Assembly (NCBI GenBank): GCA_016196885.1
Contig: JACPWU010000046.1
Span: forward strand, 1 to 32,000
Direction: 5' to 3'
Origin: Chlamydiota bacterium
GTDB lineage: Bacteria; Auribacterota; JACPWU01
DNA length: 32,000 nucleotides
Shown: piece after piece, positions 1,375-29,442 of the stretch
Numbering within the stretch: the stretch's first letter is position 1
How the letters are laid out: each line of letters begins with the position of its first letter
Position numbers and translations under genes: made by a program
Notes under the pieces: generated by a model
The model's input: only the letters and a program-made list of their open reading frames with translations
Told to the model about the DNA's origin: nothing
The model's database searches: none

Positions 1375-4300
1375 TTACATGCTTTTTTCCGTCATCTCCG
1401 TCGTTTCACGAAATTTCTGCATCCTATCACGCCAATGGCTTACGCTTGTGAAGGGCGTGACTTGATGCTCGCCCAAATCCACAAGCAACCCTTTTAGCTC
1501 ATCAGCTTTAAAACCATGCTGAAGCAATGCTCGCGTCATTGCTTCGGCATCCCCATAACAAATAGCTGCCATCACGGAAACCATCTCTTGACCGTACATA
1601 AATTTATCAAAGAGCCCTTGAATGGGCTCGTACAAGTTTCTATTTTCACGATGCCCCAGCAGCCACTTTTCCACTTCCTTCCCCTGAAAAAGTTCCCTCA
1701 CTTTTGTATCAACTGCAGCTCTCGCATCCTGCTCATTCAAATCTGTCAGGAAAAGAACTCTATCTTGAGGAATGTGATGTTCCTTGCAAAGGGCATCAAA
1801 CTCTTCTCTAGATCTTTTTCGTTCCACAAAAACCATTTTGCGATTTTCTGTTCCAGATTCTTTAATGAATTCTGTCGGACTCAAGCCCCCCAAACTTTGA
1901 ACCAGTAAATCCATATCGGGGAATAGACACACAGGTTTTTGATCTGCAGATGGTTTTAAGGCCCCTAAAACTTTTTTCTGAAAATGACGAAGCTTTGTTT
2001 TTAATCCCATCAGATAAGCGAGGGCCAAAGATAAATCTTTAGGCCGTGACACTTGAACATGCGTAACACCCAGCGTCTCGGAATTCAATTGCTCAGTCAT
2101 CTCCCCTATTTCCATTTCAGATAACGCACCCTTCGTATCCTGTCTGATAGACCAGGTCACGTCTGAACTGAAATCAAGGGTAACCAAACCCTTCTGAAAC
2201 TCTCCTCTTTCTACCTTTCCTTCAAGCTCTTGTTCAACATTTCTAACTGTTTGATCTAACCCCTCCTCAGCCAGCAATCTCCTAGTCTCTAGCCCAAGAG
2301 AAAGTCTCTGGGCCTTTGCCTGAAAAGCCTTTGCCTGTTCAATAAGATCCGGATGTTTGACTTGGATCATGAGTTCGACCAGTGCAGCATCTAAAACGCT
2401 AAGATCATTTTCTGAGACAGCAAATGAACGTGTCCCCCTTCCCAACGTCCAAAGAATGTCATAAACCGTTTGGCTCTCCATCCACTCTTTGAGCGAAAGT
2501 CCACCCGTTATTTTCTCCTTTGCCCAGGATTCGAAAGAAAAAATTTCTTTCTTCTTCGTAATCAATATTTTGGAAGGAGCCGCACCACGCATAAAGCCAG
2601 GAGAGAGTAAATAGCTACCGTTGGCAAAAATCTTTGCATTCCCTCCGTGGTCTAGAAGCATCGCCTGAACACAACCTTTCTCGGCCGCAAGCTGAGCAAT
2701 TTCCCCAAGTGTCGTTCCTTCTCTGCCAGATTTTCCGCCATTGCCAAGAAGCACAAAACTCCCATCCTGAGTCACCCCAACAACCGTTCTAGGGTAAACT
2801 CCTTCCTTAAGGAAAATATCAATTCCATTCCCTTTAAAAGCAAATTCTCCTTTTCTTCGAACAGCCCCAGCTTCTTTTTCTTGATATCCCATTTTTTCTA
2901 AAAGCTTACGCAACACCTCTTGAGAAACTGCCTTCTCTTGAAACTCAATACGATCTCCCACTCTTAAACCTACTTTTACCTTAAGAGAAAGATGAATCGC
3001 ATGTATCCATGCCTCTTTTGCCGAGGCATAGTCATTTTCTGAAAGCTCAGATACGCCAAAATAGACTTCTCCTCGCGAGACTATTTCACCTTGAACATCA
3101 GAAATATCTTTAATGAAAATTCTAGGCAACTGAAAGACATGCCTTAAATCTTGAAACTGAGGAATAATATTTTCAATATCTTTCCGAGGATTTCCTCCAC
3201 CCTCTAGAAGAAATTGTCCAAACGTTACACCCTCAACTTCATCCGTAATATCCTGCCCCGCCATTAAAACCTGAATGCGAGCATCCTGCTGTGAATAGGT
3301 AACCTCCCCCATCTCAACTTTTCCATCCTTCTTAATCACAAGAGAACTATACGAATGAGCCGTTGGGTTTTCACTGTCTATATGAAAGAGTTGACCCTGA
3401 GTAAAAGTAACAAAACCTTGATTGAAGAAAAGACACGCATTGTCCGCAAAAGCGATCACATGAAGATCTGGATGTTCTGCTTCAAAAACTTTTACAGCTT
3501 CTTCGTCACTCCGTAAATGCTTTACAACTTCCTTAGGATCATTCGTGCGAACACCCCCTGGACCTGTATAAGTAAATGTTTGCGTATCGTGATCTGCAGT
3601 GATACGCCCCTGAAGATCGGCCTGAACAACCACATGCACTGCATACGCTTGAGGATTCACTTGCACCATTGCGATAGGGACCCCATTGGATGTGGCAGTG
3701 GTAGATATTTTAACTGGCTCTTCGACTGGAGAAAGAATAGGTTCTGGAATTCCTGCATTAATAAAAATTTGGAAAAGGGCCTGAGCTTTAGCCTCAGAAG
3801 ATCCAATAATTGCCGCTCTTATTTCAGACTCATTCGTAAATCGCCTCAATTGCTCTAATAAAGACTGAGAACCCCCTTCATGAGCGATTTGCAGCCATGT
3901 TCTAACCTGATTTTCATCGACACGATAATGAATGGGCCAAGGTAGTATATCTTTTAATTCTTTGAGCAATGAGTCCACAGATATTTCACCAACGCCCTTC
4001 CCCGCCATCGCCAAAGGCTTACTAATTTTTTGCGCAATCACCGCATCGTAGAAGCTATGGGCAAGGCCCACCAGCCCAAGAGCAGCTCCTATCGCAATCA
4101 ATGGGCCAAATGCAGTGAGTCCACCTACGAGAACGACATACGCCTGCCGAAGACCCAGGGCGATCACGAAAAGCCAGCCCCAATCTTTCCAAGTGGCCCT
4201 TGCTCCTTTTAACTCCAGTTTTCCATTCTCTCTCACCCACCGTTTCACTTCTGGATGGAACAAGGGAAACATCAAAGCACTGCCCCAAGAGCCCACATAA

Positions 4301-5427
4301 CGTCCCATCGAACGATCCACGCCAAAAAGATAATGCAAGGCAAGAGAAATTCCCTCTATCATCATCAATGAAAATAAAATTTCCTCCGTCCCGGAAAACC
4401 AGGCAATCGCTCGATCTGAAAAGCCCCATCGTTTTAAAAATTGATAATATCCTGACGCCAGCCCTAGGGAAGAAGCGCTGCCAAATGCTTCCCCATAAAT
4501 ACTCTTGACTTGCCTCGGACTTGATTCTAAGATTTTTCTCATGAATGAGAGAAAGACTCCAAAACCTATTCCTACTCCAGAAGAAACCCAGCGATACAAC
4601 TCCGTCATCATTGAGGAGATGAGAAGCCAATTTAAGGTTTTTGGCGAAGGACTCTCTGGACTGAGAGAGCGCATGGACCTGGGATTTGATGAGACCAGGA
4701 GAGAATTTTTAAAAATCGATAAGCGATTTGAAAAAGTTGACCAAAGATTTGCTAAAGCGGAAGAAACCCTTAAATTCCTTTCCTCTGGATTTTTAGAACT
4801 GAGCGACGGCCAAACCCGAACCCAATCCCAGCTCCAGAAATTAGATGAAAAAGTCTCGAAAATTGACTCTAGAGTCGCAAAGCTAGAAGAAAGCAACGCC
4901 CGTATTGAATCCGATATTCGCCTCATCAAAAACGACATCAAAGTTAAAGTAAGTTTAGAAGAATTTAAAGTGCTTGAAAATAGGCTTGCGATCGTTGAAA
5001 AAAGACTCGCTGCCCTTCCCATCTCTGCTTGATTAGCGCTATTTGAAATCCTTCTGGAACCCCCTATACTGCGTATCAAGCCATCCACATCCCCTTCATA
5101 TCCGCCTAACTCCAGCACTCTTTTCAGATAAATTTCTACGGGATGAGTGGTTTCTTTATCACTCAGAAAAAATCGCATCTGATCTTGCGTGAGCGTGGTC
5201 ACACGCTCAAGCCAGAGAAGAGGATTTTTCTGCAATTCTCCAGGAATTTGCAAATGATCGCCCTTAAGCACTTTTCGCTCTATTTCTCGAATAACCCCTT
5301 CTAAATCTCTCGCCCCCGCTTCCCCATATTCTAAATTAAGTTCTCGGGCCAAAGCTTCTTGATCCCTTTGCCATTGGTCAAATTGGAGAGCAGTGAGCCC
5401 CGCGGCAAGAGCAGCCTCTTCGCCCAA
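1375..5427 (-). CDS. giant multidomain membrane protein: CPBP/Abi-like TM module plus a phosphodiester glycosidase (NAGPA/DUF2233)-like domain; paralog of 22811..27523 in its N-terminal part
   Basis: Uninterrupted 1350-codon frame with a TTG start in the ORF track. CPBP-like motifs: EEILFS, FPLFH and HSFYD inside a hydrophobic block. NAGPA-like stretch: YPRTVVGVTQDGSFVLLGNGGKSGREGTTLGEIAQLAAEKGCVQAMLLDHGGNAKIF. Codons about 130-310 are Ser/Leu/Trp-rich low complexity, being the antisense of the ORF at 4541..5032, so it is uncertain whether one continuous protein is made. The first ~45 codons are homologous to the C-terminal tail of the 666-aa ORF (shared FDQW motif). Confidence 0.6.
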   Translation of the reverse strand: MGEEAALAAGLTALQFDQWQRDQEALARELNLEYGEAGARDLEGVIREIERKVLKGDHLQIPGELQKNPLLWLERVTTLTQDQMRFFLSDKETTHPVEIYLKRVLELGGYEGDVDGLIRSIGGSRRISNSANQAEMGRAASLFSTIASLFSSTLNSSKLTLTLMSFLMRRISDSIRALLSSSFATLESIFETFSSNFWSWDWVRVWPSLSSKNPEERNLRVSSALANLWSTFSNRLSIFKNSLLVSSNPRSMRSLSPESPSPKTLNWLLISSMMTELYRWVSSGVGIGFGVFLSFMRKILESSPRQVKSIYGEAFGSASSLGLASGYYQFLKRWGFSDRAIAWFSGTEEILFSLMMIEGISLALHYLFGVDRSMGRYVGSWGSALMFPLFHPEVKRWVRENGKLELKGARATWKDWGWLFVIALGLRQAYVVLVGGLTAFGPLIAIGAALGLVGLAHSFYDAVIAQKISKPLAMAGKGVGEISVDSLLKELKDILPWPIHYRVDENQVRTWLQIAHEGGSQSLLEQLRRFTNESEIRAAIIGSSEAKAQALFQIFINAGIPEPILSPVEEPVKISTTATSNGVPIAMVQVNPQAYAVHVVVQADLQGRITADHDTQTFTYTGPGGVRTNDPKEVVKHLRSDEEAVKVFEAEHPDLHVIAFADNACLFFNQGFVTFTQGQLFHIDSENPTAHSYSSLVIKKDGKVEMGEVTYSQQDARIQVLMAGQDITDEVEGVTFGQFLLEGGGNPRKDIENIIPQFQDLRHVFQLPRIFIKDISDVQGEIVSRGEVYFGVSELSENDYASAKEAWIHAIHLSLKVKVGLRVGDRIEFQEKAVSQEVLRKLLEKMGYQEKEAGAVRRKGEFAFKGNGIDIFLKEGVYPRTVVGVTQDGSFVLLGNGGKSGREGTTLGEIAQLAAEKGCVQAMLLDHGGNAKIFANGSYLLSPGFMRGAAPSKILITKKKEIFSFESWAKEKITGGLSLKEWMESQTVYDILWTLGRGTRSFAVSENDLSVLDAALVELMIQVKHPDLIEQAKAFQAKAQRLSLGLETRRLLAEEGLDQTVRNVEQELEGKVERGEFQKGLVTLDFSSDVTWSIRQDTKGALSEMEIGEMTEQLNSETLGVTHVQVSRPKDLSLALAYLMGLKTKLRHFQKKVLGALKPSADQKPVCLFPDMDLLVQSLGGLSPTEFIKESGTENRKMVFVERKRSREEFDALCKEHHIPQDRVLFLTDLNEQDARAAVDTKVRELFQGKEVEKWLLGHRENRNLYEPIQGLFDKFMYGQEMVSVMAAICYGDAEAMTRALLQHGFKADELKGLLVDLGEHQVTPFTSVSHWRDRMQKFRETTEMTEKSM
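4505..4533 (+). promoter_or_regulatory. candidate sigma70-type promoter for the embedded plus-strand ORF (TTGACT-17 nt-TAAGAT)
   Basis: TTGACT at 4505-4510, a 17-nt spacer, and TAAGAT at 4528-4533. The ATG at 4541 lies 7 nt after the -10 box and has no SD, which fits a leaderless or near-leaderless transcript. Confidence 0.35.
4541..5032 (+). CDS. coiled-coil protein embedded antisense within the giant ORF
   Basis: 163 codons from the ATG (the ORF track starts at TTG 4505). The composition is protein-like and heptad-like: LRERMDLGFDETRREFLKIDKRFEKVDQRFAKAEETL...LDEKVSKIDSRVAKLEESNARIESDIRLIKNDI...LENRLAIVEKRLAAL. The opposite-strand translation over the same bases is atypical (roughly 25% Ser, several Trp). 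Confidence 0.5.
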   Translation: MNERKTPKPIPTPEETQRYNSVIIEEMRSQFKVFGEGLSGLRERMDLGFDETRREFLKIDKRFEKVDQRFAKAEETLKFLSSGFLELSDGQTRTQSQLQKLDEKVSKIDSRVAKLEESNARIESDIRLIKNDIKVKVSLEEFKVLENRLAIVEKRLAALPISA

Positions 5428-5891
5428 AGAGCCTATTTCCTCAAGAAAGTGAAGCCTCGCGATTTTCTGAAGGGTCGGAAGTGAGGCCTCTTTAAGGCAT
5501 CAGGAGCGCCCGAAACAAATCCAAACTGCTCTTTCATCTTCCTAAAATAGGCGCTGCGATCATTATGACCCGTCATACGAGGCGCAATCACCCAATAACC
5601 GATCTTGGCCTCTTTCAATTTCTTCGTAATCCCTTCCGTATGAAACCCACCCACCACAAGCGCTGCACAGGTGAGTTTCTTTTCCTGAATAATTTCAAGA
5701 GACTTCTCGAACATGATTTGGTCTCGCTTCAGAACTTGGGCATAGAATTTTTGGGAGAGGACGAAGATCTCTCCAAAATCTTCAAGAATAGGGGATGATA
5801 GATTATTTGCTTCAGAATTGACTTCTTTTGTTAAGGTCTTCAGACGATAAAGGAAGTCTTTTACATATTCTTCTTCTCTTTGTGAGTCTTT

Positions 5892-6025
5892 CCTCCCCCT
5901 TATTTTTTTAAGGGGGACTGGGGGGGTTAACTCCTCTTCTTTCATAACTCCCCTAACCCCTCTCAAGCTTTTACAAGATTTTATAGTCCCCACGGGATAG
6001 TCCCCTTGGGATATCTTAAGAGGGG
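5892..6025. repeat. multi-hairpin palindromic element lying in frame inside the coding sequence (same family as 27979..28064 and 28326..28426)
   Basis: Hairpins CCCCCTTA-loop-TAAGGGGG, GGGGGTTAA...TAACCCCTC, and CCCCTCT...AGAGGGG. Translated as SPLK...LRGVRGVMKEEELTPPVPLKKIRGRK. Confidence 0.6.
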
Positions 6026-6925
6026 AAAAAGAACCACCCCATACAACTTTTACATCCCCCCTTTTCCCTTCCAAATTTACAATACGCTTCAACCGTCTAT
6101 AATCGTCCTGAAGTTGAAAAAGTTCTTTCTCTCGATCCTCTCTCAGCAACACTTTAAAGATTTTCTCTTCCACTTGATGAATTTCATTGTCCAACTGTGT
6201 CCATGAGATTTCACTTAAAAACTTCATTTGCTGAAACAGCAATTCCAAATTTTTGTATTTTTGTGAATCCTGAACTCTACTTAAATATTTACTTAAATAT
6301 AAATAATGTTCCTCATCGCTCACCTGTCCTAAGCGATGCTCTAATACTTGTCTCAAAAGTTCTTTCAATTCCTCTTTTGGAAGTTGCTTTTCTAACACTT
6401 CAAGAAATTCTAAATACTCACTCTCTAATTTCTTATGGTTTGTATCCATTTCCAAAGCTTTCAAGGTTTGAAATTTTCCTAACACCGGATTTCTTTCACC
6501 TATTTTTTCTGAAATACTCTCTCGTATAATCCCACCAAATAAGAAACATATGCATCCATGCCTAATTTCAATGTTTCGTAATTTTCTTTCTTTTTCATCA
6601 ACTCCTGAATCTCTTCAGAATAAATTTTCTCTGACAACTTTTGAAATACATGCTCCAAATCCTGCCAGACCTGTTCTTGCCGCCCCTTTTCCTCCAAAAG
6701 CTCACCCATCACTTTGAGGTTCTGAACATAATCAGGCAAATTTTCGACGCCCACCCCTTTCACTTTTTCAGGGCCCTGCTCAATGAGAAAAGCTTCTACC
6801 GCATCCAATTCATTTTTATCCAAGAATTTCTTTAGGCAAGAGGTCAACACCTTTTGATCCGGAAAGGACCAAAAAAAGGACATGTCCATGTCTTTGCTGG
6901 CGGCTTCGGAGAGAACATAAAAAAG

Positions 6926-6989
6926 GCTGGGGAGCTAGGAGGCTAGAGGACTTCCTCTCCCTAGCTTCCCAGCTTCCTAACTTCCTAGC
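6926..6989. repeat. inverted repeat built from 8-nt units (GCTRGGAG arrays facing CTCCYAGC arrays), inside the coding sequence
   Basis: gctggggagctaggaggctagagga / tcctctccctagcttcccagcttcctaacttcctagc. Equivalent element at 29086..29157. Translated as KLGSWEARERKSSSLLAPQ. Confidence 0.7.
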
Positions 6990-7529
6990 TCTGATTGTCA
7001 TTTCTTCTAATATTTCCAATATCCTTTTGATATTCCCTTGTGCTTCAGCATTACAATGAATGTCTTCAATGATAAAAACATGAGGTTGACCTGGAACTGT
7101 GAATGGGTCTATCACTTCTCCAATGGAGGAAGAAAGGTGAAAAGTCTCAAAAGAAGGTTTTAGCTTCCCATATTTGAGAGAGGACGTTCCCTGAGTAGGA
7201 GTTAGAGTTTTTAGAGGGGTTATAAATTGTGAATCTTAGCCCAACGCATAGGAAAAATCGTAGAACAGAAAGGAAATACAAATAAATAGGCTTATGAACG
7301 ACTGAAGACATCGTTTGCGCCCTTTTTGACAAAGCCTCATAAATCCCCCCAGCCTCAGTGTCCTATTATAAAGACGCAATTGAAGGCTCAAATGCCAAAA
7401 AAATAACGTCAAATTGACCCTTCAGTACCCCTTAAACTCCTATTTTTTACCTAAGTCAAAAAAAGAGTAGACTTTTTTATACTTTGGTATAAACTGTAAG
7501 AGATCGTCGGAAACCTTTGGAAAAGTGAT

Positions 7530-10363: not shown

Positions 10364-10494
10364 GGCGGGTGGCACGACTGGGGGTCCCCTGCTAACGCCA
10401 GCAGGTCGAGACTTACGTCCCAAAAGTTCTAAACGAAAAACCACCAACGAGACCGATGCCGTTAGTGGGGGTGAGGAGGGACAGGACCCGCCTT
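10362..10494. ncRNA. candidate structured RNA / conserved repeat element, copy A (short form)
   Basis: Shares four conserved blocks with 16595..16790: GGCMCGACTGGGGGTCCC, GCCAGCAGGTMGAG, ACCGATGCCGT, GGGTGAGGAGGGACAGGMCC. Closing stem AAGGCGGGT/ACCCGCCTT. Inner stem CTAACG (10392-97) / CGTTAG (10460-65). It fills the gap between two convergent stop codons. Strand not determined. Confidence 0.45.
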
Positions 10495-11929: not shown

Positions 11930-11988
11930 TGTAGTCGCCCCATTTATGGGGCCGTCTATGGATTTGCCCGATGAATCGGGCGACTACA
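11930..11988. repeat. REP-like double-hairpin element, copy 1
   Basis: Perfect 10-nt terminal inverted repeat TGTAGTCGCC/GGCGACTACA enclosing hairpins CCCCATTTATGGGG and GCCCGATGAATCGGGC. The reverse complement matches 16521..16567 apart from a ~12-nt internal indel. Confidence 0.85.
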
Positions 11989-16520: not shown

Positions 16521-16567
16521 TGTAGTCGCCCGATTCATCGGGCAGCCCCATAAATGGGGCGACTACA
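16521..16567. repeat. REP-like double-hairpin element, copy 2 (inverted relative to copy 1)
   Basis: TGTAGTCGCC-CGATTCATCGGGC-A-GCCCCATAAATGGGGC-GACTACA. Same termini and both hairpins as 11930..11988 in the opposite orientation. Confidence 0.85.
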
Positions 16568-16594: not shown

Positions 16595-16790
16595 AAGCGA
16601 GTGGCCCGACTGGGGGTCCCCCATTGAGCGCCAGCAGGTAGAGGCAAATAACTTTCAATTTCTATCAACAACAAATTCGATACCGATGCCGTCTCAGCAT
16701 AAGGAAAAAAACATCTACTATCGCAGTCGGCCCTTTTTCTGCCACAGGCAGCGGGCCTCCTTTGCTGGGTGAGGAGGGACAGGCCCCACT
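16595..16790. ncRNA. candidate structured RNA / conserved repeat element, copy B (long form with a ~70-nt extra segment)
   Basis: Same four conserved blocks as 10362..10494. Inner stem TGAGCG (16625-30) / CGTCTCA (16690-96) differs from copy A but stays complementary. The element abuts the cinA stop codon. Confidence 0.45.
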
Positions 16791-22598: not shown

Positions 22599-22814
22599 TT
22601 AAACATTCTCCAGAAGAGAACTGATCTGTTTACGGCGAGTCTCCAATTCATCCAATTCGAAAAAGTCTTCCCAACCCTCTTCTTCGCGAATCTTACCCGA
22701 TTGTATGAATTGATCCAACTGAAACACATCTTTTACTTCATGACGAGATGCAATTCTAAAAATCTCCGATTCCACATGACGCAACTGTTGCTCCAAATAA
22801 GTCCGCAGACTCAT
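22599..22814 (-). CDS. small acidic hypothetical protein, start overlapping the giant ORF stop (ATGA)
   Basis: 71 aa. ATG 22814-22812 overlaps TGA 22813-22811. No family recognised. Confidence 0.5.
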   Translation of the reverse strand: MSLRTYLEQQLRHVESEIFRIASRHEVKDVFQLDQFIQSGKIREEEGWEDFFELDELETRRKQISSLLENV

Positions 22815-25800
22815 TTGACACGGATTTGGTCTTTTTCGCCGCCCATAACTAAAACAAGATTTCCTGCAATATCATTTTGATTAGTCATGGGCCAAAAATC
22901 TGAATCTTTTAAACCATGTTGATCTTTATCTACATCCCCTTTTGCGTCAAAGAAACGAGCATCTATTTTCATTTGCCTTAAGAAATGTACCATAGCCAAA
23001 ACTTCTTGAGCCCGTTCAGGATTCTCAAGCGACCTTACATCAAATGCAAATTTGAGAGGCACTCTTAAATCTGTGATCCTGCCTTGAATCGCCTTTTTTA
23101 AATTTGCCTTCAAGCTCCAAAGCTTTTTCACAGAAAGTGCAGCCCCCAAGCCCCATCTCATTTTTTCTTGAGGAGAAAGATCAGAAGAAGCCACTTCTAC
23201 ATGAACACTCGCGTCTCGAAGACTCAAAGCATCTCTCAAGGAAGTATCCAACGTTACAGAATCTTCGGAAATTCCAGCAGCCTCTTCACTCAAAGCTCGT
23301 ACTTCCCCGTCGCGAATGTTTAAAACAATCCCTTCTTTATGCGTAAAAGTGTCTCCTGCCAAACGCTCCATTCTCTGAACTTGATCTGCTACACCCGTCT
23401 GAGCAAACCCATACATCATGCGAAGCTCTAAAGCTAAACGCTGTATTTCCCCTCCTCTCTGCTCATATATTGAAAGACTCAATTCTTCTATTAAAACATC
23501 CAGCGTATTGCGCGATAGACGAGGATGATCACGTAGATATTTATCCAAAATATCTGCGAATGTCCTAAGAACTTCTGCATCTGAAATATCTCTGCGAGAT
23601 AAATAATCATCGAAGGCCCTATTTTCTATCAACGCATCATTATCTGTCAACCAGCCCATAAACTTGAGCATAACTCTTTGACGGAGGTCTAAAAAGTAAA
23701 GACTCCTGCTATCCAACAGCCTATGAACTAGAGAAACATCTTCATCTCTCATTTGCTTGACCAACCTAGATTCAGACGACAAAGTCTCAAGAAATGCTGT
23801 TTTGAAATCATCTGAATTCTCTATAAGACTTATATCTTGCACGAGACCTGTCCTTAAAATCTCAATATCTTGATATGTCAAAACTCCATGCAACTCATCG
23901 CCTTTTTTACTCATCTCATGCATAGCCTCATGCGAAGTGCCATAAATCCAGTCGGCTTGGCGATGTTCTTGAGGAATGTTGGTGAGATGCTTTAGATTAA
24001 CGAAAAATTTCCCATCGCCCACACAGTTTCCGTAGGGCGAGCGAAAGTCATAACCCTCTTTGAGATGCTTTTCATCTCCAAAATAAAAGGTGTATTCCCC
24101 ATCCGCTAAAGTTGTTGTTTCAAATTCTAAATCCTCTGCCCTTGCTCGAATAAAATCGCCCCATTTCTTCAGGAACTCTTGCTCTTGATCCGCTTTAATT
24201 CCTAAAAGTCGATAGAGCGCTTTTTTCTCATCAGAATCGGGAACACTAAACTGGCCGTCCGTCACTGTTATTGTGATCGGGTTGCCATCCAAGAGTATAT
24301 TCACCTGAGCCATTTCTTGAGAAGGATATTCTAAGTCCGACCTGTTCTGAGCGTCAAAATGGGCGTATGATCCCCCTTCAACAAGAACATTCTTCTCAGT
24401 GTCATACCTCACACTGATTTGCTCTAAATATTTCTGAAACGCCTGCTGAACGTTACGTAACAATTGCCAATCCTGATCTGTCAAAGGAACACTCACAACA
24501 TTTTGATTATGCTCATGTTGTGTTCCTCTTAGCTCGCTCCATTTATTGAGAGAGGGATAGAGCCTTGTGTATTTTTCAGGATAACCGGCCAGATAGCCTG
24601 CGAGTTCGATTAACTCTGTATCTGAAAGACCTTTTAAATCCATTGGGTAGGTTTTCACTTTTAGAATTTGCCATCCCGTCCCTTCAAAAGTCTTTTGTGC
24701 CGTGGCTCCCACCCGCAATAAGAGCGGAGGAGAAGTGACCAATTCCACTTTAAGATCAGAACGGCCGAGAAAAAGTCTCTCGACCCCTTGTTTGCTGTTG
24801 ACCAAAGTATCCACCGTCACGCGTGATGGTTGTTCTTCTATATGAATCAATTCAGGCTCATCAAATTTAGATAAAATCCCTTCTTTTTCAAAACAAAATT
24901 TTAGGATATCCGATTCTAAAAAACTTTCATCCGTGATACCTTTCTCCAACCGCTTCTTCTCAGCAGGAGTTAATGTTCCCAAAGCTTCATAGTGGACAAT
25001 GGTTTTTTCTATCAAAGGAATCGTTCCTCTTCCTCGGCCAGCAGCGATGACAATGGGAATACGCAGGCCTCTCTCATCTCGAATTCCCTTCCATGTATTC
25101 GCAAACTCTATAAAAGCTCGAAGATCCGGATTTCCTAAAGCGAGAAAAACATCCGGTAACTGATCCGAAAGTTCATCTCCTTGCGAAAGAAAATCCACGT
25201 AATCTTGAAAAACTGTTTTGAAATTTTCCCTTGCTTCCTGCAAAGGTTCTTTTCCTAAAGCAACAGTATCACTGAAAAATTTCCGCTCCTCAGGCGTTCC
25301 ATGATCACGAAGCCAACCCTTAACGTACCCCTCAGATTCGTCATATCCTCTCTGAGCTAGCTCTAAAATTTCTCTTTCCTCCCAACGAGACGCTATAGCA
25401 CCTATAAATTCAAAAACCTGAACTGTATTTTTTTTCCCAAGACGTCTAGAAATCTTACCTAGTACAGAACATACTGGTTCTTGAAGATAAACCTTTTGTT
25501 TTTCCTCCTCTGAAATTTCATCTCCTATGGCCAAGCGCGCAGAAATACCCCCCACGCCTCCAGTCTGCATAAGTTTCCGCTGATTCGCGCTCGATCTTCC
25601 CTGAATAACCGGACTCCCTCGTTCCTGAAGCGCTTCCAAAATCCCAAAATGAGCTGCACCATAAAGCAATATGACCGCATAACCTTTCTGCGATGCTTCT
25701 AAAACCTGTTCGACGATGCGACGATTCCTATTAGTCGCATACACGCTCCAAGCACTAACAACTTCATCCATCCATTGAAAATATTGAAGGCTTTGTTCTG

Positions 25801-27523
25801 GTGTTCTAAGGCCAGTAGAAAAAAAATACTCCAAAGCCCGTGTCCTTCTTCCTTCCTTCCAGAAGCCGGACAACCAATCTTGGAACTGAATGTCCTCAAG
25901 AATAACCCTCGTATGTGTTTGAGCTATCCATTGCATGAGCATTGCTTCAAAATCTGAAACACATTTTTGAACCCAGTTAAAAACAACCCCGCTGTTTAGA
26001 ATAGACTCGTATGCCTTTCTCATAGCCTGAAGTTGAAAATCAAAATGATGCCTCTTCAATACATTCTCAATGAAATCAGGGATTTGTTCCACCGTCTTAA
26101 TAAATTCGTCTGGTAATAAAGATAAAAGAGAACGATATTCTCCTGAAATGTCTGCTGGACTAAGCCGGGCAGGTCCACCATTGTCTAATATCAAAACAAG
26201 TCTCCGCCCTTCTTCACTGGCCTTACGCCTTGCTTCTTCTAAATCTGGAAGATGCTTTTCAAAATCCTCCTTCGATTGATTAGCCATTGCAATGTATGTA
26301 ATGGAACCTGGTGGAATGCCTGCAGAGGTATCTATTTTTTTAGGCATTTGTAGCTTTTTTCTATTCCATTCATTCACCAAATTCGCGATACGACCAGCCG
26401 GAGCATTTCCTCCTGTAAAATCTAAAACTCTGAGTATTTTCTGAACAATCTTTGTATTTAACGCTTTTCCCTGGCTCCTGGTTAAAAGTTCTCTGAGCTG
26501 GCGATCTAAGTCCGCGTCACTTGATCTTTTTTTCCGTTTAATCCCATTGACTTTTAAAATCTCTCGTTTCAGTTTTTGAAAATCATCATCTGCTAATACC
26601 AACTGATAGGGTTTCGGCATAACGAGGTTATAAATCACATGCCCCGCATACGCCCACAAAGCCTGATTCCACCCCGAACTCCCTTTAGAATATTCAGCAA
26701 ATTTGTCGAAGAAACTCAAACTCTCGGGATCAAAAGAAGCAAGCGCTACGGGAAGTAAACTACTGATGAGAGTGGCAGCAAACCAACGAACTAAAAATTG
26801 TGTGAACTTTTCTTTAGTAGTTAATCCCGGTGGCGCATGAATCAAATGAATCAGGGCAAAAATGAAAGCCCCCACCGGAATCCCCCACACGCCCAATACC
26901 GGCGCCAAAAAACGCGCAAACCCCGGCAAGCCCAAAAGTTCTAACGCTGGAATTACACCTACTCTCACCCAGCGCTTCTTTAAAATCTCATCAGCCCTGG
27001 CCTGGGCCTTATCTTTCTCCATTCCACCCAGCCTCAGAACTCCGTCTAGAACCCAGTTCCAGAGGGGGAGAACGAGTTGAGATAAACCATCTTCCGCCAA
27101 CCCTTCTTGATCCATAGGTAAGCTGATCCTTACAAGATCTTTTTTCTCCAAGCCAGGGGGTCGCGATACTTCCACCTCACTTGATCCAGTTTCACTTGGT
27201 GCAGCGGACACCACCCCTACCATTTCTCCCATCAACTGAAGCGTTCTAACCCCTAGAAAATTTTTTGAATTTCTTTTCCCATCTTTAGCGTCGCCTCCCA
27301 CATATTTCTCCATCAAATCACGAAACTCTTCATATCCCTCCCCCAAAGATTCTTTTAAATAGGCCTCTGTCAATTTTTGAATCGTTCCACCCTCATGCAA
27401 AAGTTGATTCATTTGTTTCAATTTATTGGTTAATTCTGGATCTAAAATGGAGCTTGTCGAATGCCCATGTTTTTTTTGAGCGCTTGAATCACAGGTTTTA
27501 GAGAGGGAACTGATTTTTCCCAT
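22811..27523 (-). CDS. giant multidomain membrane protein: CPBP/Abi-like TM module, TraB/GumN-like C-half, DUF218/YdcF-like domain, HExxH motif
   Basis: 1570-codon frame. CPBP-like FIFALIH and AGHVIYNLV sit in a hydrophobic block. TraB/GumN-like NRNRRIVEQVLEASQKGYAVILLYGAAHFGILEAL. DUF218-like DVFLALGN...IPIVIAAGRGRGT...ESDILKFCFEKEGI...IHIEEQPSRVTVDTLVNS...VELVTSPPLLLRVG. Zincin-like GTSHEAMHEM. The first 27 codons overlap the upstream ORF; an alternative start is ATG 27412 (MNQLL). Confidence 0.75.
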   Translation of the reverse strand: MGKISSLSKTCDSSAQKKHGHSTSSILDPELTNKLKQMNQLLHEGGTIQKLTEAYLKESLGEGYEEFRDLMEKYVGGDAKDGKRNSKNFLGVRTLQLMGEMVGVVSAAPSETGSSEVEVSRPPGLEKKDLVRISLPMDQEGLAEDGLSQLVLPLWNWVLDGVLRLGGMEKDKAQARADEILKKRWVRVGVIPALELLGLPGFARFLAPVLGVWGIPVGAFIFALIHLIHAPPGLTTKEKFTQFLVRWFAATLISSLLPVALASFDPESLSFFDKFAEYSKGSSGWNQALWAYAGHVIYNLVMPKPYQLVLADDDFQKLKREILKVNGIKRKKRSSDADLDRQLRELLTRSQGKALNTKIVQKILRVLDFTGGNAPAGRIANLVNEWNRKKLQMPKKIDTSAGIPPGSITYIAMANQSKEDFEKHLPDLEEARRKASEEGRRLVLILDNGGPARLSPADISGEYRSLLSLLPDEFIKTVEQIPDFIENVLKRHHFDFQLQAMRKAYESILNSGVVFNWVQKCVSDFEAMLMQWIAQTHTRVILEDIQFQDWLSGFWKEGRRTRALEYFFSTGLRTPEQSLQYFQWMDEVVSAWSVYATNRNRRIVEQVLEASQKGYAVILLYGAAHFGILEALQERGSPVIQGRSSANQRKLMQTGGVGGISARLAIGDEISEEEKQKVYLQEPVCSVLGKISRRLGKKNTVQVFEFIGAIASRWEEREILELAQRGYDESEGYVKGWLRDHGTPEERKFFSDTVALGKEPLQEARENFKTVFQDYVDFLSQGDELSDQLPDVFLALGNPDLRAFIEFANTWKGIRDERGLRIPIVIAAGRGRGTIPLIEKTIVHYEALGTLTPAEKKRLEKGITDESFLESDILKFCFEKEGILSKFDEPELIHIEEQPSRVTVDTLVNSKQGVERLFLGRSDLKVELVTSPPLLLRVGATAQKTFEGTGWQILKVKTYPMDLKGLSDTELIELAGYLAGYPEKYTRLYPSLNKWSELRGTQHEHNQNVVSVPLTDQDWQLLRNVQQAFQKYLEQISVRYDTEKNVLVEGGSYAHFDAQNRSDLEYPSQEMAQVNILLDGNPITITVTDGQFSVPDSDEKKALYRLLGIKADQEQEFLKKWGDFIRARAEDLEFETTTLADGEYTFYFGDEKHLKEGYDFRSPYGNCVGDGKFFVNLKHLTNIPQEHRQADWIYGTSHEAMHEMSKKGDELHGVLTYQDIEILRTGLVQDISLIENSDDFKTAFLETLSSESRLVKQMRDEDVSLVHRLLDSRSLYFLDLRQRVMLKFMGWLTDNDALIENRAFDDYLSRRDISDAEVLRTFADILDKYLRDHPRLSRNTLDVLIEELSLSIYEQRGGEIQRLALELRMMYGFAQTGVADQVQRMERLAGDTFTHKEGIVLNIRDGEVRALSEEAAGISEDSVTLDTSLRDALSLRDASVHVEVASSDLSPQEKMRWGLGAALSVKKLWSLKANLKKAIQGRITDLRVPLKFAFDVRSLENPERAQEVLAMVHFLRQMKIDARFFDAKGDVDKDQHGLKDSDFWPMTNQNDIAGNLVLVMGGEKDQIRVK

Positions 27524-29442
27524 TGATCAAATTCTTGAGAAGAAAGATTAGCCTTCTGAAGCATTTTTTCTCCTAGGCCTTCCATTACTTCATAAAATCC
27601 CTCTTTCGATGGCTCTTCTATAAATTCATTAAATTCTTTCATTTTTTGAAAATAAACGCGGCGATCATCTATTTTTTCTGAATGGGGGGCAATGACGCAG
27701 TAGCCCATCTCAGCTTCTTTTAATTTTTCTTTGAGGGCATCTGTATGAAAACCTCCGACGACGACAGCGGCATTTTGAAGTTTCTTTTCTTTGATCTCTT
27801 GAGAAAGTTTCTGATAGAAAATTTTGTCTCGATCAAGCACTTTTTTGTAAAACTTTTTGGCGGTCTGGAAGATGTTTTCAAAGTCAGGGGATTCGAAAGA
27901 GAGGTTATTTTCTTCGCACAACTTTCTTAAGGCTTGAGAAAAGTTTATTACGTACTCTTCTTCTCTTTGTGAGTTTTTCCTCCCCCTTATTTTTTTAAGG
28001 GGGATTGAGGGGGTTACTTCCTCCTCTTTCATAACTCCCCTAACCCCTCTTAACTTAAGAGGGGAACGAAGGCCACTCCATATAGCTTTTAAATCTTCTC
28101 TCTTTCCCTCCATCGATATCACTCGCTTCAAAACAGTGTAATCATTTTCAAGCTTCAGCAGTCTCTTGATTTCCTTTTCATTTCCTTTTCCCCTGTACGC
28201 TGAACGCTCTACGCTGCCCGCTAATTTTTCAACCTCTGAGTCCAATTTTTCCCATGAGATTTTTTTCATAAGGGACATCTGCTCGATAAAAAATTTGAGA
28301 TTGGGATAGAGTTCTTTTTGTTTTTCCCTCCCCTTAATATAAGGGGAGCCGGTGGGGTTATTGACTTCTTCCATAACTCCCCCTACCCCTAACTCCCCAG
28401 GCCCCTCTTTAAAAAAAAGAGGGGGGACGTTCTCTTCATGTTCTGGTTCTAGATATTTACTTAAGAAAAGATAATGCGCTTCATCCCCAATTCTCCCCAA
28501 ACGATGTTCCAGCACATTTTTCATCACTTCGTTAAGTTCTTCTTTCGTCAACTGTTTCTCTAATGTTTGAAGAAATGAAAGATATTCGCTTTCGACTCTC
28601 GACATATCTGTTTTCTTCTCAAGAGTTTGAAGTTTTAAATAAAGACTTATTTGAGGAAAATCCTCTTCTAACTTCAAACCTCTAACATTTAACTGCTGTA
28701 GATATTCCCCCATTCCAATTTTGAAATCTTCATATTGCTTCTTTTTTTTCATCAACTCTAAAAGTTCTTGAGGATAAATTTTTTCTCTCAAACTTTGAAA
28801 CAATTCTTCCAAATCGCTCCACACATGCTCTTGAAGTTCTCGCTCTTCCATCAATTCATTCATGAGTTTTACATTCTCAAGATAGGGCTGAAGTTCTTCA
28901 ACGCCCAAACCGATTGCTCCACCAGTTTTTTCTCCCATTAAAAAGGACTCCACGCCATTGATGTCTCTATCCTGAATGAACTGATCTTGAACCAAAGGCA
29001 GTATTTCTTTTTTTGGAAAAGCTGTAAAAAAACTCATGTCCATCCATCCCGTCGCAGCCTCGGAAAAAACACAAAAAGACTGGCTGGAAAGCTGGGAGGC
29101 TAGGAGGCTGGGAGAAAGCTTTTGCTGTTTAGCTTCCCAGCTCCCCAGCTTCCTAGCATCTTTTGTTTCTTCCTTCAACACCTTCAATATCCTCGCTATG
29201 TTCCTCTCAACCTCTGGATTACAATGAATATCCTCAATTAAGAAGACGGTAGGATTCCCCGATAAAAGCACTTGATCTGTGATTTCTCCCATATCTGCAG
29301 GGATTGGGTTGGAATTCAAGAACATGTCCGGCTGGGAGGGGAGATAAGTCTTAATTGCTTGATGTGGAATGGGTTGTGAATAAGGCTCTATTTGTTGACT
29401 CCAACTTGGTTGAATATCATAAGAGACAAAGCAAAGACACAA
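27442..29442 (-). CDS. Tiki/TraB/ChaN-superfamily protein (intact paralog of 5433..7332)
   Basis: N-terminal VFLIEDIHCNPEVERNIARIL (ChaN/erythromycin-esterase-type GE-H-N motif). C-terminal LDRDKIFYQKL...AAVVVGGFHTDALKEKLKEAEMGYCVIAP (TraB/GumN-type motif). The track start is TTG. An ATG at 29470 with a hydrophobic leader lies one frame off. Confidence 0.75.
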   Translation of the reverse strand: MCLCFVSYDIQPSWSQQIEPYSQPIPHQAIKTYLPSQPDMFLNSNPIPADMGEITDQVLLSGNPTVFLIEDIHCNPEVERNIARILKVLKEETKDARKLGSWEAKQQKLSPSLLASQLSSQSFCVFSEAATGWMDMSFFTAFPKKEILPLVQDQFIQDRDINGVESFLMGEKTGGAIGLGVEELQPYLENVKLMNELMEERELQEHVWSDLEELFQSLREKIYPQELLELMKKKKQYEDFKIGMGEYLQQLNVRGLKLEEDFPQISLYLKLQTLEKKTDMSRVESEYLSFLQTLEKQLTKEELNEVMKNVLEHRLGRIGDEAHYLFLSKYLEPEHEENVPPLFFKEGPGELGVGGVMEEVNNPTGSPYIKGREKQKELYPNLKFFIEQMSLMKKISWEKLDSEVEKLAGSVERSAYRGKGNEKEIKRLLKLENDYTVLKRVISMEGKREDLKAIWSGLRSPLKLRGVRGVMKEEEVTPSIPLKKIRGRKNSQREEEYVINFSQALRKLCEENNLSFESPDFENIFQTAKKFYKKVLDRDKIFYQKLSQEIKEKKLQNAAVVVGGFHTDALKEKLKEAEMGYCVIAPHSEKIDDRRVYFQKMKEFNEFIEEPSKEGFYEVMEGLGEKMLQKANLSSQEFDQWEKSVPSLKPVIQALKKNMGIRQAPF
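27979..28064. repeat. multi-hairpin palindromic element in frame within the CDS (family copy)
   Basis: cctcccccttatttttttaaggggg / gagggggtta...ctaacccctc / cccctcttaacttaagagggg. Translated as SPLKLRGVRGVMKEEEVTPSIPLKKIRGRK. Confidence 0.65.
28195..28222. repeat. array of four 7-nt units inside the CDS
   Basis: gtacgct gaacgct ctacgct gcccgct. Translated as AGSVERSAYRG. The paralog has unrelated sequence at this position. Confidence 0.6.
28326..28426. repeat. multi-hairpin palindromic element in frame within the CDS, absent from the paralog
   Basis: ccctccccttaatataagggga ... ggtggggtta...ccctacccct ... cccctctttaaaaaaaagagggggg. It corresponds to a ~36-40 aa insertion (NVPPLFFKEGPGELGVGGVMEEVNNPTGSPYIKGREK) relative to the 350-aa paralog fragment. 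Confidence 0.7.
29086..29157. repeat. inverted repeat of 8-nt units in frame within the CDS
   Basis: gctgggag gctaggag gctgggag - aaagcttttgctgttt - agcttccc agctcccc agcttcct agc. Translated as KLGSWEAKQQKLSPSLLASQLSSQ. Confidence 0.75.

Follow-up and report, generated by a model that had tools for sequence, protein, structure and literature searches.

The best documented case so far of repeats that insert in frame into proteins is that of Rickettsia, in which the palindromic elements (RPE) of Ogata et al. 2000 are reportedly translated and tolerated at permissive sites, and are said to differ between orthologues. We know of no enzyme associated with RPE, nor of a full-length coding form. 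Bertels and Rainey in 2011 are said to have treated REP/REPIN sequences together with RAYT genes, and for short hairpin repeats other than REPs no mobilising enzyme is known to us. MITEs are non-autonomous deletion derivatives of insertion sequences. Few bacterial domains of unknown function are commoner than DUF559, which includes E. coli YcjD; to our knowledge neither transposase nor homing activity has ever been demonstrated for it. REP/REPIN sequences have an associated RAYT gene (REP-associated tyrosine transposase) which is flanked by REPs (Nunvar et al. 2010, PMC2817692). Phage genes harbour Vsr-like enzymes such as I-Bth0305I within their group I introns or inteins (PMC3239194; Dassa et al. 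2009, PMC2677866), and multicopy nucleotide families of Geobacter lie between genes and also within genes without disruption of the frame (Aklujkar et al., PMC2700814, PMC2996986).

We analyzed a window of 32,000 nucleotides (the whole stretch of DNA under study) in which three short palindromic elements, E1, E2 and E3, lie within two paralogous genes. With a probability of roughly 0.7 we consider these to be copies, devoid of a gene, of a compact selfish element which is common among uncultivated bacteria from groundwater and sediment and which carries DUF559 in its full form. Overall we regard the system as REP/REPIN- or MITE-like, its candidate enzyme not having been reported before. An association of DUF559 with hairpin modules was not found described in the literature on DUF559, YcjD, Vsr-like enzymes and palindromic elements in CPR/Dehalococcoidia, although coverage of that literature was incomplete and this is no proof of novelty.

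Elements within two paralogous genes

A sequence-only reading of this DNA had reported three related palindromic multi-hairpin elements in paralogous genes. All three were found in place, each as a three-hairpin element (Table 1), and the RNA folding which that reading had suggested as a check recovered the three hairpins with z-scores of -1.7 to -4.7. The 19-mer core matched the window three times at up to three mismatches where 0.03 matches were expected, while CCCCTTA..TAAGGGG and CCCCTCT..AGAGGGG matched three times and twice, respectively, with none expected for either. In all three copies module A comes first and module B follows in inverted orientation (both defined in the next section), the arrangement present around the DUF559 ORF. 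E1 and E3 agree with every specified position of the module A consensus; in E2 the hairpin has diverged and the core is unchanged. The hairpin A loop of E3 holds a nested insert of approx. 51 nt (5964-6014), or 16 additional codons.

Table 1. Positions of the elements, their parts and the genes that carry them
Feature	Position	Strand	Description
Host gene	27442-29442	-	666-aa protein of a large uncharacterised family; carries E1 and E2
Paralog of host gene	5433-7115	-	with E3, without E2
E1	27979-28064	-	short ORF-less element; motif mapping and RNA fold
E1 hairpin B arms	27981-27989 / 27996-28004	+	TCCCCCTTA / TAAGGGGGA
E1 GGGGGTTA	28009-28016	+	followed by 13-nt spacer
E1 core	28030-28040	+	CATAACTCCCC
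E1 hairpin A arms	28044-28053 / 28055-28064	+	CCCCTCTTAA / TTAAGAGGGG
E1 read on the minus strand, first half	28064-28030	-	hairpin A 28064-28044, TTA, GGGGAGTT-ATG 28040-28030
E1 read on the minus strand, second half	28029-27981	-	13-nt spacer 28029-28017, TAACCCCC 28016-28009, TCAAT, hairpin B 28004-27981
E2	28326-28426	-	second short element; order and orientation as in E1
E2 hairpin A	28402-28424		diverged, CCCCTCTTT/AAAGAGGGG
E2 additional GGGGAGTTA copy	28390-28398		degenerate
E2 core	28372-28382		CATAACTCCCC
E2 GGGGTTAT	28354-28361
E2 hairpin B	28328-28348
E3	5892-6025	-	E1 counterpart in the paralog
E3 hairpin	5894-5917
E3 core	5943-5953
E3 third hairpin	5957-6025
Unrelated in-frame palindrome in host gene	29083-29157	-	encodes ARKLGSWEAKQQKLSPSLLASQLSSQ

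It had also been claimed that the elements are translated without breaking the frame, and each was indeed found in an open sense frame, which is the only open frame of six in E2 and E3 and one of two in E1. The translations of E1 and E2 are SPLKLRGVRGVMKEEEVTPSIPLKKIRGR and PPLFFKEGPGELGVGGVMEEVNNPTGSPYIKGR, respectively. The ORF that contains both of them is intact, and the paralog is interrupted and falls into three ORFs (in frames 0/2/0: 6816-7115, 6500-6889 and 5433-6485), the last of which, a minus-strand ORF of 350 aa, contains E3. An intein or intron identity was rejected, the inserts being 86-134 nt long, read through in frame and without an Rfam family; Rfam searches of the whole window at gathering thresholds and of 27900-28500 at permissive E-values gave chance-level matches only.

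At E<=1e-3 the host family comprises 4215 representatives, many of which form the N-terminal region of proteins 2000-7700 aa long. The label "Tiki-like" given to these genes earlier had no Pfam or PDB sequence support and could not be kept. Even with E allowed to reach 10, Pfam yielded nothing for the window protein, for P0002 and P0003 or for the seven distant homologues searched, a test for the Tiki/TraB/GumN superfamily gave no match to PF01963 or a related profile, and a PDB sequence search with the host protein gave no match. A remote structural kinship to Tiki/TraB/GumN is not excluded, and the AF2 model of the host protein (pLDDT 45.6) was too poor for a fold search. In this model, which is weak, the inserts of E1 and E2 appear as coil with pLDDT <50 between more confident helices. 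The two elements were shown to occupy two linker positions of a helical protein.

The description of E2 as a clean insertion relative to the paralog proved correct, with a measured net length of approx. 37 aa. E2 is missing from the paralog and from P0008, P0021, P0068 and P0069, and is carried by P0002, P0004, P0005 and P0016, while E1 is missing from P0008, P0019 and P0022, in which other palindromic peptides fill the site. At both sites homologues were shown to be empty, to carry the same element or to have palindromes unrelated to it. This pattern, together with the absence of E2 from the paralog, bears out the earlier inference of gain or loss after the duplication: E1 is older than the gene duplication, and for E2 a later gain is the simplest account. 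The E1 and E2 insertions are common to proteins at 47%-55% identity, and the orthologue P0002 (47% identical) retains the elements, its stems being inferred from the peptide only. Contigs of two relatives terminate at or inside E2, which is the assembly behaviour expected at a repeat.

At the nucleotide level a 113-nt repeat pair spanning E3 and E1 (5854-5966 / 27941-28053) is 90% identical, and from paralog to paralog the elements are approx. 91% identical (83/90, 82/90) versus approx. 60% (approx. 17-21/30) for the flanking coding DNA. The near-consensus DNA of such old in-gene copies is not predicted by simple passenger decay and is at present unexplained; gene conversion, re-invasion or selection at the nucleotide level is required, and it may be asked whether one of the first two maintains the uniformity.

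A cross-phylum module family with a DUF559 form

Module A consists of the hairpin CCCCTCTTA-nnn-TAAGAGGGG followed by TTA-GGGGAGTTATGA, and was tested as the consensus T-CCCCTCTTA-nnn-TAAGAGGGG-TnA-GGGGAGTTATGA (the base before the hairpin is T in 75%). Module B consists of the hairpin (C)CTCCCCTTA-nnn-TAAGGGGAG(G), then 4-6 nt, then GGGGGTTA, and its inverted form was tested as TAACCCCC-n5/6-hairpin CCCCCTTA..TAAGGGGG. The core CATAACTCCCCNNACCCCT had matches in at least 116 genome loci. All loci from the genome collection were selected by the motif itself, and by chance approx. 69 matches to the core pattern (19 nt, of which 17 are specified) are expected in 596 Gb. Genuine copies account for approx. 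95 of the 116 loci listed, and approx. 16-18 lack the hairpin and are chance matches (Methanosarcina, Flavobacteriaceae, Acidobacteriaceae and others). The independent 3' arm of hairpin A continues 99 of the 128 matches listed, 77 of them at the canonical spacing. The 19-nt core is present in at least 95 loci from Chloroflexota, Patescibacteria, Desulfuromonadales, Nitrospirota, Bacillota and Omnitrophota. Both stems were invariant in 32 module A copies from many phyla, so that covariation could add nothing for this module.

Solo modules were the commonest form (89 of the 128 matches listed). Within these motif-picked loci 22 of 189 modules (approx. 12%) were inside long ORFs, versus 52% of random 40-mers; the copies as a whole were mostly intergenic. 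Coding copies include four modules in a long UvrA ORF of an Uhrbacteria MAG, with a DUF559 element directly downstream, and those in Mfd of Dehalococcoidia. In 156 module A copies none of the boundaries tested showed a consistent direct repeat of 3-5 nt indicative of target-site duplication. The suggestion that hairpin, Shine-Dalgarno sequence and ATG are a mere gene start was rejected, as the CAT was a plausible start of an ORF of at least 100 codons in only approx. 17 of the 128 listed matches, several of which are the DUF559 genes themselves.

In the full-length form hairpin A, TTA and GGGGAGTT lead into the ATG of a DUF559/Vsr-like ORF of approx. 121 aa, which is followed by TCA-TAA, CCCCC and hairpin B. 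The start codon is the ATG of module A and the stop codon is the TAA within TCATAACCCC of inverted module B. The ORF belongs to PF04480 (E 1e-32 to 1e-34); both of its ends match the modules at four loci (L019, L030, L038, L086), and three further copies (L002, L059, L064) either match at one end or are disrupted. The minus strand of E1 has both full-length ends with 13 nt replacing the ORF, and short forms in general have only 4-20 nt between modules A and B. Of 19 convergent module pairs whose inner gap is <=40 nt, 18 were of the A+B type, as were 20 of the 24 with a gap of 251-600 nt, which is the size of the ORF (38/43 for both classes). Some genomes had short as well as long forms (L019 with other MGMS01 loci, L030, L054), although never at one orthologous locus in the sample examined.

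The reverse test used 80 metagenomic DUF559 loci chosen by protein alone. A sense-oriented C-arm/G-arm hairpin with a G-run was present <=100 nt upstream at 55 of 78 loci (71%) but in only 2 of 213 background windows (1%), and inverted similarity of the flanks exceeded the 99th percentile of shuffles at 24 of 66 loci. Residues D54, E65, D67 and H71 were invariant in nine DUF559 proteins (48%-56% identity), and the DUF559 profile matched PDB 3hrl (E 4e-28) and the homing endonuclease I-Bth0305I (3r3p, E 2e-4). Judged from its sequence, and without cleavage data, the element-borne nuclease looks functional. The association with the modules is specific and strong; it offers a testable function for DUF559 and a mechanism to look for in repeats which break metagenome assemblies and yield spurious or extended ORFs. 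As neither a DUF559 gene nor an intergenic copy of the element was found in 39 kb of the 67-kb contig, activity in the present genome is unproven.

The sequence-only reading had stated that confinement to these genes and conservation as protein in distant orthologues would refute a mobile palindrome. Half of this condition is fulfilled, in that within the 39 kb the elements are confined to these genes and P0002 conserves them. The decisive half fails, given the spread of the modules through unrelated phyla and their presence or absence at both sites among host homologues. The elements are not an ordinary protein domain, since the same nucleotide modules are mostly intergenic in unrelated phyla and host homologues differ in their presence.

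Comparison with described systems

The family resembles REP/REPIN/BIME systems in its hairpin units of approx. 35 nt with a conserved non-palindromic extension, in its many, mostly intergenic copies with frequent inverted doublets and mosaics of alternating orientation, and in having a candidate enzyme gene flanked by two inverted units. Here, however, the flanked gene encodes a DUF559/Vsr-like PD-(D/E)xK nuclease (PF04480) and not an HUH Y1 transposase, the GT(A/G)G head 5' of the palindrome is absent and the extension (GGGGAGTTATGA) is 3' of the hairpin. The unit is also near-invariant across phyla whereas REPs are species-specific, and a sizeable minority of its copies are translated inside genes.

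As in MITEs such as Correia elements, the two ends of a longer coding form are preserved in the short form, correctly ordered and oriented, and terminal inverted repeats are common to short form and coding element. Unlike in MITEs, there was no sign of target-site duplication, the encoded protein is none of the known transposases, and single ends, i.e., solo modules, outnumber complete short elements. With the Vsr-like (EDxHD) homing endonucleases the system has in common that a selfish insert encodes a small nuclease, in both cases of one structural family, and its long and short forms may be filled and empty versions of a site, but the present gene is free-standing between hairpin modules, and these modules are dispersed repeats. 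The multicopy families of Geobacter have different sequences and no enzyme linked to them, and the present motif was absent from the G. bemidjiensis supplementary alignments.

The parallel drawn earlier with the Rickettsia palindromic elements was upheld, in that palindromes are inserted in frame into ORFs and differ between orthologues. This comparison is one of behaviour and not of membership. The host is a PVC-group groundwater MAG and not Rickettsia, no shared sequence is known (no RPE consensus was compared), and the present family is mainly intergenic and extends across phyla. Patescibacteria, Chloroflexota and PVC bacteria likewise have repeats inserted in frame into proteins, at linker hot spots that recur.

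Proposed origin and rival explanations

Modules A and inverted B of the full-length form face each other across the DUF559 (Vsr-like, PD-(D/E)xK) gene, and in the proposed mechanism the nuclease would recognise these hairpin/G-run modules. It would then mobilise them in trans, as thought for RAYT with REP/REPIN, or home into them; mobilisation by the DUF559 nuclease is inferred and has not been shown. Copies inside genes would persist only if the frame is open and the site tolerates 30-45 additional, probably disordered residues, and the window copies would be old passengers translated as linker peptide. A broader version, which we put forward only tentatively and consider less likely than not, is that DUF559/Vsr-like nucleases are partners of a whole superfamily of bacterial hairpin-plus-G-run repeats, as the nuclease counterpart of RAYT/REP. 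It would extend from the near-invariant A/B modules of groundwater phyla to the CCCTCT..AGAGGG-TTAGGGTGAGGGG repeats of Proteobacteria, including the dispersed E. coli repeat adjoining ycjD, with the elements repeatedly adding translated linker peptides to proteins, the core repair enzymes UvrA and Mfd included.

The palindrome might instead be the primary element or target, with DUF559 the gene of a free-standing homing endonuclease which cleaves it in the middle, between GGGGAGTTA and TAACCCCC, and copies itself in; E1-E3 would then be "empty sites" rather than deletion derivatives, and the short form would owe its spread to another cause. We regard this as unlikely while acknowledging that the sequence relationship of DUF559 to I-Bth0305I is in its favour, as is the position of the ORF exactly between inverted cores, its first and last codons belonging to the inverted repeat. 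The bimodal inner gaps (<=40 nt or 251-600 nt) and the lack of a target-site duplication also agree with homing, and the paralog identity that reaches approx. 38 nt past E1 on one side is like a co-conversion tract. Dispersal to hundreds of unrelated sites and the abundance of solo modules are nevertheless not explained by homing alone, the variation of the short-form central spacers in length and sequence is awkward for a sequence-specific target, and no cleavage data are available.

That the element DNA is far better kept than the flanking coding DNA, with stems of 9-10 bp still perfect despite 45%-55% divergence of the host protein, could also point to a co-opted function in cis, either as a stable mRNA or DNA structure (ribosome slowing, message protection) or as an internal Shine-Dalgarno-plus-ATG cassette (GGGGAGTTATG, in frame) for a separate C-terminal part. 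GGGGAGTT-ATG is a real start in DUF559 genes, and the ATGs of E1 and E2 are both in the host frame. We nonetheless find such a function improbable: some homologues lack the elements or have palindromes of another kind in their place, the paralog does without E2, E3 tolerates a 51-nt insert in one hairpin, gene conversion among copies could explain the conservation equally well, and there are no expression data. Hardly any credence can be given to the view that the segments are simply a repeat or linker conserved in this protein family, in which palindromy is a by-product of the peptide and no mobile DNA is involved. Confinement to these genes within 39 kb and conserved peptides in the orthologues P0002, P0004 and P0005 would suit it, but identical nucleotide modules that are mostly intergenic in unrelated phyla, nucleotide identity far above that of the flanking coding sequence, presence or absence among homologues and assemblies that break at E2 speak against it.

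The host gene contains one further in-frame palindrome (29083-29157), unrelated to the elements, with arms of 27 nt that are 78% complementary. It is absent from P0002, P0004, P0021, P0068 and P0069, and the paralog has a copy of it at 6926-6991.

Anatomy and reading frames of E1 to E3

The window matched positions 1-32000 of JACOUD010000031.1, from a groundwater MAG with the NCBI label "Chlamydiae bacterium". The sequence-only reading had described three palindromic three-hairpin elements, E1 to E3, within two paralogous genes and translated without a break in frame. All three were confirmed at the coordinates in the table, and the three hairpins were recovered on RNA folding. E2 and E3 follow the plan of E1, of which they are variants, and the core and both hairpin patterns occurred two to three times each in the window vs 0–0.03 expected by chance. 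Only one of the six frames is free of stops in E2 and in E3, and two of six in E1; every element was placed in the open sense frame of a minus-strand ORF (for E3 a 350-aa ORF of the paralog).

The paralog is divided into three ORFs in frames 0/2/0, which means two frame disruptions, by pseudogenisation or assembly error. Nested in the hairpin A loop of E3 (the last hairpin, + strand) is an insert of about 51 nt, or 16 codons, with a tandem pair of 14-mers, AGTCCCCACGGGAT / AGTCCCCTTGGGAT. Copies from other phyla have another nested repeat, gatccttcgacttcgctcaggacatgcc, in this loop (loci L001, L010, L012, L031, L067, L087, L093, L116); the hairpin A loop therefore seems to be a site where further insertions land.

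Positions of elements, genes and repeats in the window (contig JACPWU010000046.1)
Feature	Position	Strand	Remark
E1	27979-28064		
E1 first hairpin TCCCCCTTA/TAAGGGGGA	27981-28004	+ (reading)	
E1 GGGGGTTA	28009-28016	+ (reading)	13-nt spacer next
E1 CATAACTCCCC	28030-28040	+ (reading)	TAA next
E1 last hairpin CCCCTCTTAA/TTAAGAGGGG	28044-28064	+ (reading)	
E2	28326-28426		
E3	5892-6025		
E3 nested insert	5964-6014		
Host gene	27442-29442	-	intact 666-aa ORF; contains E1 and E2
Paralog	5433-7115	-	contains E3
Paralog ORF, frame 0	6816-7115	-	
Paralog ORF, frame 2	6500-6889	-	
Paralog ORF, frame 0	5433-6485	-	
Third-site palindrome, host gene	29083-29157		
Third-site palindrome, paralog	6926-6991		
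Long ORF	22811-27523		1570 aa
Long ORF	1375-5427		1350 aa
Other small intergenic repeats	11966-11988; 16528-16567; 10380-10410; 16613-16643		

The full-length element and its DUF559 gene

A pattern scan with CATAACTCCCCNNACCCCT over 185,579 species genomes gave at least 116 loci. ORF clustering across 116 loci produced a single top cluster, from 12 loci in several phyla. Its ORFs encode a DUF559 protein (PF04480, E about 1e-32) of about 125 aa and begin with the CAT of the search pattern as read on the opposite strand. The full-length element runs from the hairpin of module A, hairpin A (CCCCTCTTA-nnn-TAAGAGGGG), through TTA and GGGGAGTT to the DUF559 ORF (ATG, about 121 codons, TCA-TAA), followed by CCCCC, about 6 nt and the hairpin of inverted module B, hairpin B (CCCCCTTA-nnn-TAAGGGGG). 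On the minus strand E1 reads CCCCTCTTAAGTTAAGAGGGG TTA GGGGAGTT ATG aaagaggaggaag TAA CCCCC tcaat CCCCCTTAAAAAAATAAGGGGG; both ends of the full-length element are kept, their order and orientation unchanged, and 13 nt stand in for the gene. Convergent module pairs from all loci joined A to B in 18/19 cases where the inner gap was at most 40 nt and in 20/24 where it was 251–600 nt, the size of the ORF; a single element therefore exists in two states, short and long. Modules also frequently stood alone or in B-A ("tail-head") pairs, a feature shared with REP mosaics. Conservation of module A extended from the T before the hairpin to GTTATGA with random sequence beyond, and no consistent target-site duplication was found at its boundaries.

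To control for the motif-based choice of loci, 80 metagenomic loci were fetched by DUF559 protein alone. A hairpin with a C-rich and a G-rich arm, followed by a G-run, lay in sense orientation no more than 100 nt upstream of the gene start in 55/78 of these loci vs only 2/213 of their background windows, a strong association. An inverted module was present downstream of the gene in 18/71, and inverted flank similarity exceeded the 99th percentile of shuffles in 24/66. The close DUF559 relatives of the query have these same A/B modules, and more distant DUF559 genes have other modules of the same design, e.g., CCCTCTCCC..GGGAGAGGG-TTAGGGTGAGGG. Nine element-borne proteins shared 48–56% identity, and D, E, D and H positions did not vary among them; their profile matched PDB 3hrl (E 4e-28) as well as I-Bth0305I, a homing endonuclease (E 2e-4).

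About 150 nt downstream of ycjD, the DUF559 gene of E. coli K-12, we observed CCCCTCT-GGGG-AGAGGG-TTA-GGGTGAGGGG, a dispersed repeat (15 places in the median E. coli genome) whose core resembles module A (AGAGGGG-TTA-GGGGAG). This repeat is probably "box C", which was first seen next to envM/fabI, the neighbor of ycjD. In the K-12 locus (NC_000913.3, 1351039-1351830) ycjD is followed by a duplicated piece of its 3' end and by the repeat, CCCCTCGCCCCTCTGGGGAGAGGGTTAGGGTGAGGGG. In the literature searched, DUF559 was nowhere linked to hairpin repeats.

Distribution and possible mobility

The sequence-only reading would have failed had the element been unique to these genes and conserved as protein in distant orthologs; the elements are specific neither to the host gene nor to its lineage. 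Chance alone would give about 69 matches to the 17 specified bases of the pattern in 596 Gb (calculated). Among the matches listed, the independent 3' hairpin arm continued in 99/128, with exactly canonical spacing in 77, and about 95/116 loci were real copies; their hosts were Dehalococcoidia and other Chloroflexota, many Patescibacteria classes, Desulfuromonadales/Geobacteraceae, Nitrospirota, Bacillota, Omnitrophota and a few MAGs labelled proteobacterial. Complete copies also occurred on seven IMG/VR contigs, and in 32 copies of the unit, drawn from different phyla, neither stem varied.

With at least 60 open codons required on each side, 22/189 pattern-found modules (12%) lay in ORFs vs 52% of random 40-mers, and most of the family is therefore intergenic, while a minority of in-frame copies recurs in either orientation. 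An Uhrbacteria MAG (contig JACPJN010000009.1) has four in-frame modules in a long UvrA ORF (e.g., HNPSQPPLTLRGGEKQNPPLRVRGGRGSYE) and a full DUF559 element immediately after it; other in-gene copies were found in Mfd of several Dehalococcoidia (SPLKIRGVGGVM) and in a membrane protein (locus L026). The other small intergenic repeats of the window are a hairpin, GCCCGATGAATCGGGCGACTACA, in three copies and GGGGGTCCCCTGCTAACGCCAGCAGGTCGAG in two; two Dehalococcoidia loci (L078, L098) contain the very similar gcccgataaatcgggcaactaca.

The anatomy of the element, the relation of its short to its long form, the strong DUF559 association, the restriction to open frames and the presence or absence at linker hot spots are established here; recognition of the modules by the nuclease, their mobilization and homing are all inferred. 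The nuclease might mobilize modules in trans, as a RAYT would, or home into short forms like a homing endonuclease. In-gene copies would be survivors whose frame was kept open at tolerant sites, here presumably translated as a linker peptide; a co-opted role, such as in-frame GGGGAGTT-ATG as an internal start, is possible but unsupported. The present family works like REP/REPIN-RAYT systems and like MITEs, but it lacks the Y1 transposase and GTAG head of the former and the target-site duplication of the latter. The suggested parallel with Rickettsia palindromic elements holds for in-frame behavior within genes but membership in those families has not been demonstrated. Other multicopy families inserted in genes have been described in Geobacter genomes (PMC2700814, PMC2996986).

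Insertion history in the host protein family

A word-indexed protein search returned three relatives only, while a full HMMER search revealed a large family (4215 representatives), many of them the N-terminal part of 2000–7700-aa proteins; the "Tiki-like" label once given to the host genes has no sequence support. Most HMMER alignments end near residue 330, the E2 junction, and two relatives have contigs that break off at E2 or within it, as is typical of repeats.

The presence and absence of E1 and E2 were scored on an alignment of 13 family members. In P0002 (47% identity), one of the three relatives from the word-indexed search, E1 and E2 occupy the same positions as in the host gene, and E2 is longer. 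E2 was also present in P0004, P0005 (nearly canonical, SPLKLRGVGGVM..SPYFKGRE) and P0016, missing from the paralog, and replaced by unrelated, variable sequence in P0008, P0021, P0068 and P0069. E1 was present in the host gene, paralog, P0002, P0004 and P0005. It was missing from P0008, P0019 and P0022, where its place is taken by another pair of palindromic peptides, LEARGSKLEAK / SSLEPRASS, and P0021 and P0068 (25–29% identity) have other module-like peptides there, SPLKLRGEEKQ and PPLSLRGDGGVT. At a third site a different in-frame palindrome (27-nt arms, 78% complementary), encoding ARKLGSWEAKQQKLSPSLLASQLSSQ, was found in the host gene, paralog and P0003 and was missing from P0002, P0004, P0021, P0068 and P0069. 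Judged from this alignment, the linkers, third site included, are therefore repeated insertion hot spots. The pair LEARGSKLEAK and SSLEPRASS, located at the E1 and third sites, look like two strands of another palindromic repeat.

Outside E1 the host gene is 55% identical to P0002 vs 46% to the paralog, which makes the paralog the outgroup and E1 older than the gene duplication. Gain or loss of E2 after the duplication had been proposed, and its absence from the paralog is most simply read as a gain. In an AF2 model both inserts lay in coil between better-predicted helices; the model was poor (pLDDT 45.6) with the inserts at low confidence.

The stems of E1 are still perfect despite its old insertion, and its DNA identity is 83/90 to E3 and 82/90 to L082, a 1.3-kb contig of an Omnitrophota MAG with a relative of the host gene, vs about 17–21/30 in flanking coding DNA. 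This near-consensus state is unexplained; it is compatible with gene conversion, with re-invasion and with selection at the nucleotide level. In L082 (1000-1314) sequence like the right half of the window E2 stands in place of the right half of E1, the reading frame is disrupted at this point, and E2 is cut off by the contig end, a pattern that hints at exchange or recombination between element copies.

The host gene and paralog are each directly followed by a very long ORF, and the ORF after the host gene overlaps it by 82 nt; because homologues are often the N-terminal part of much larger proteins, each pair may represent a giant protein that has been split.
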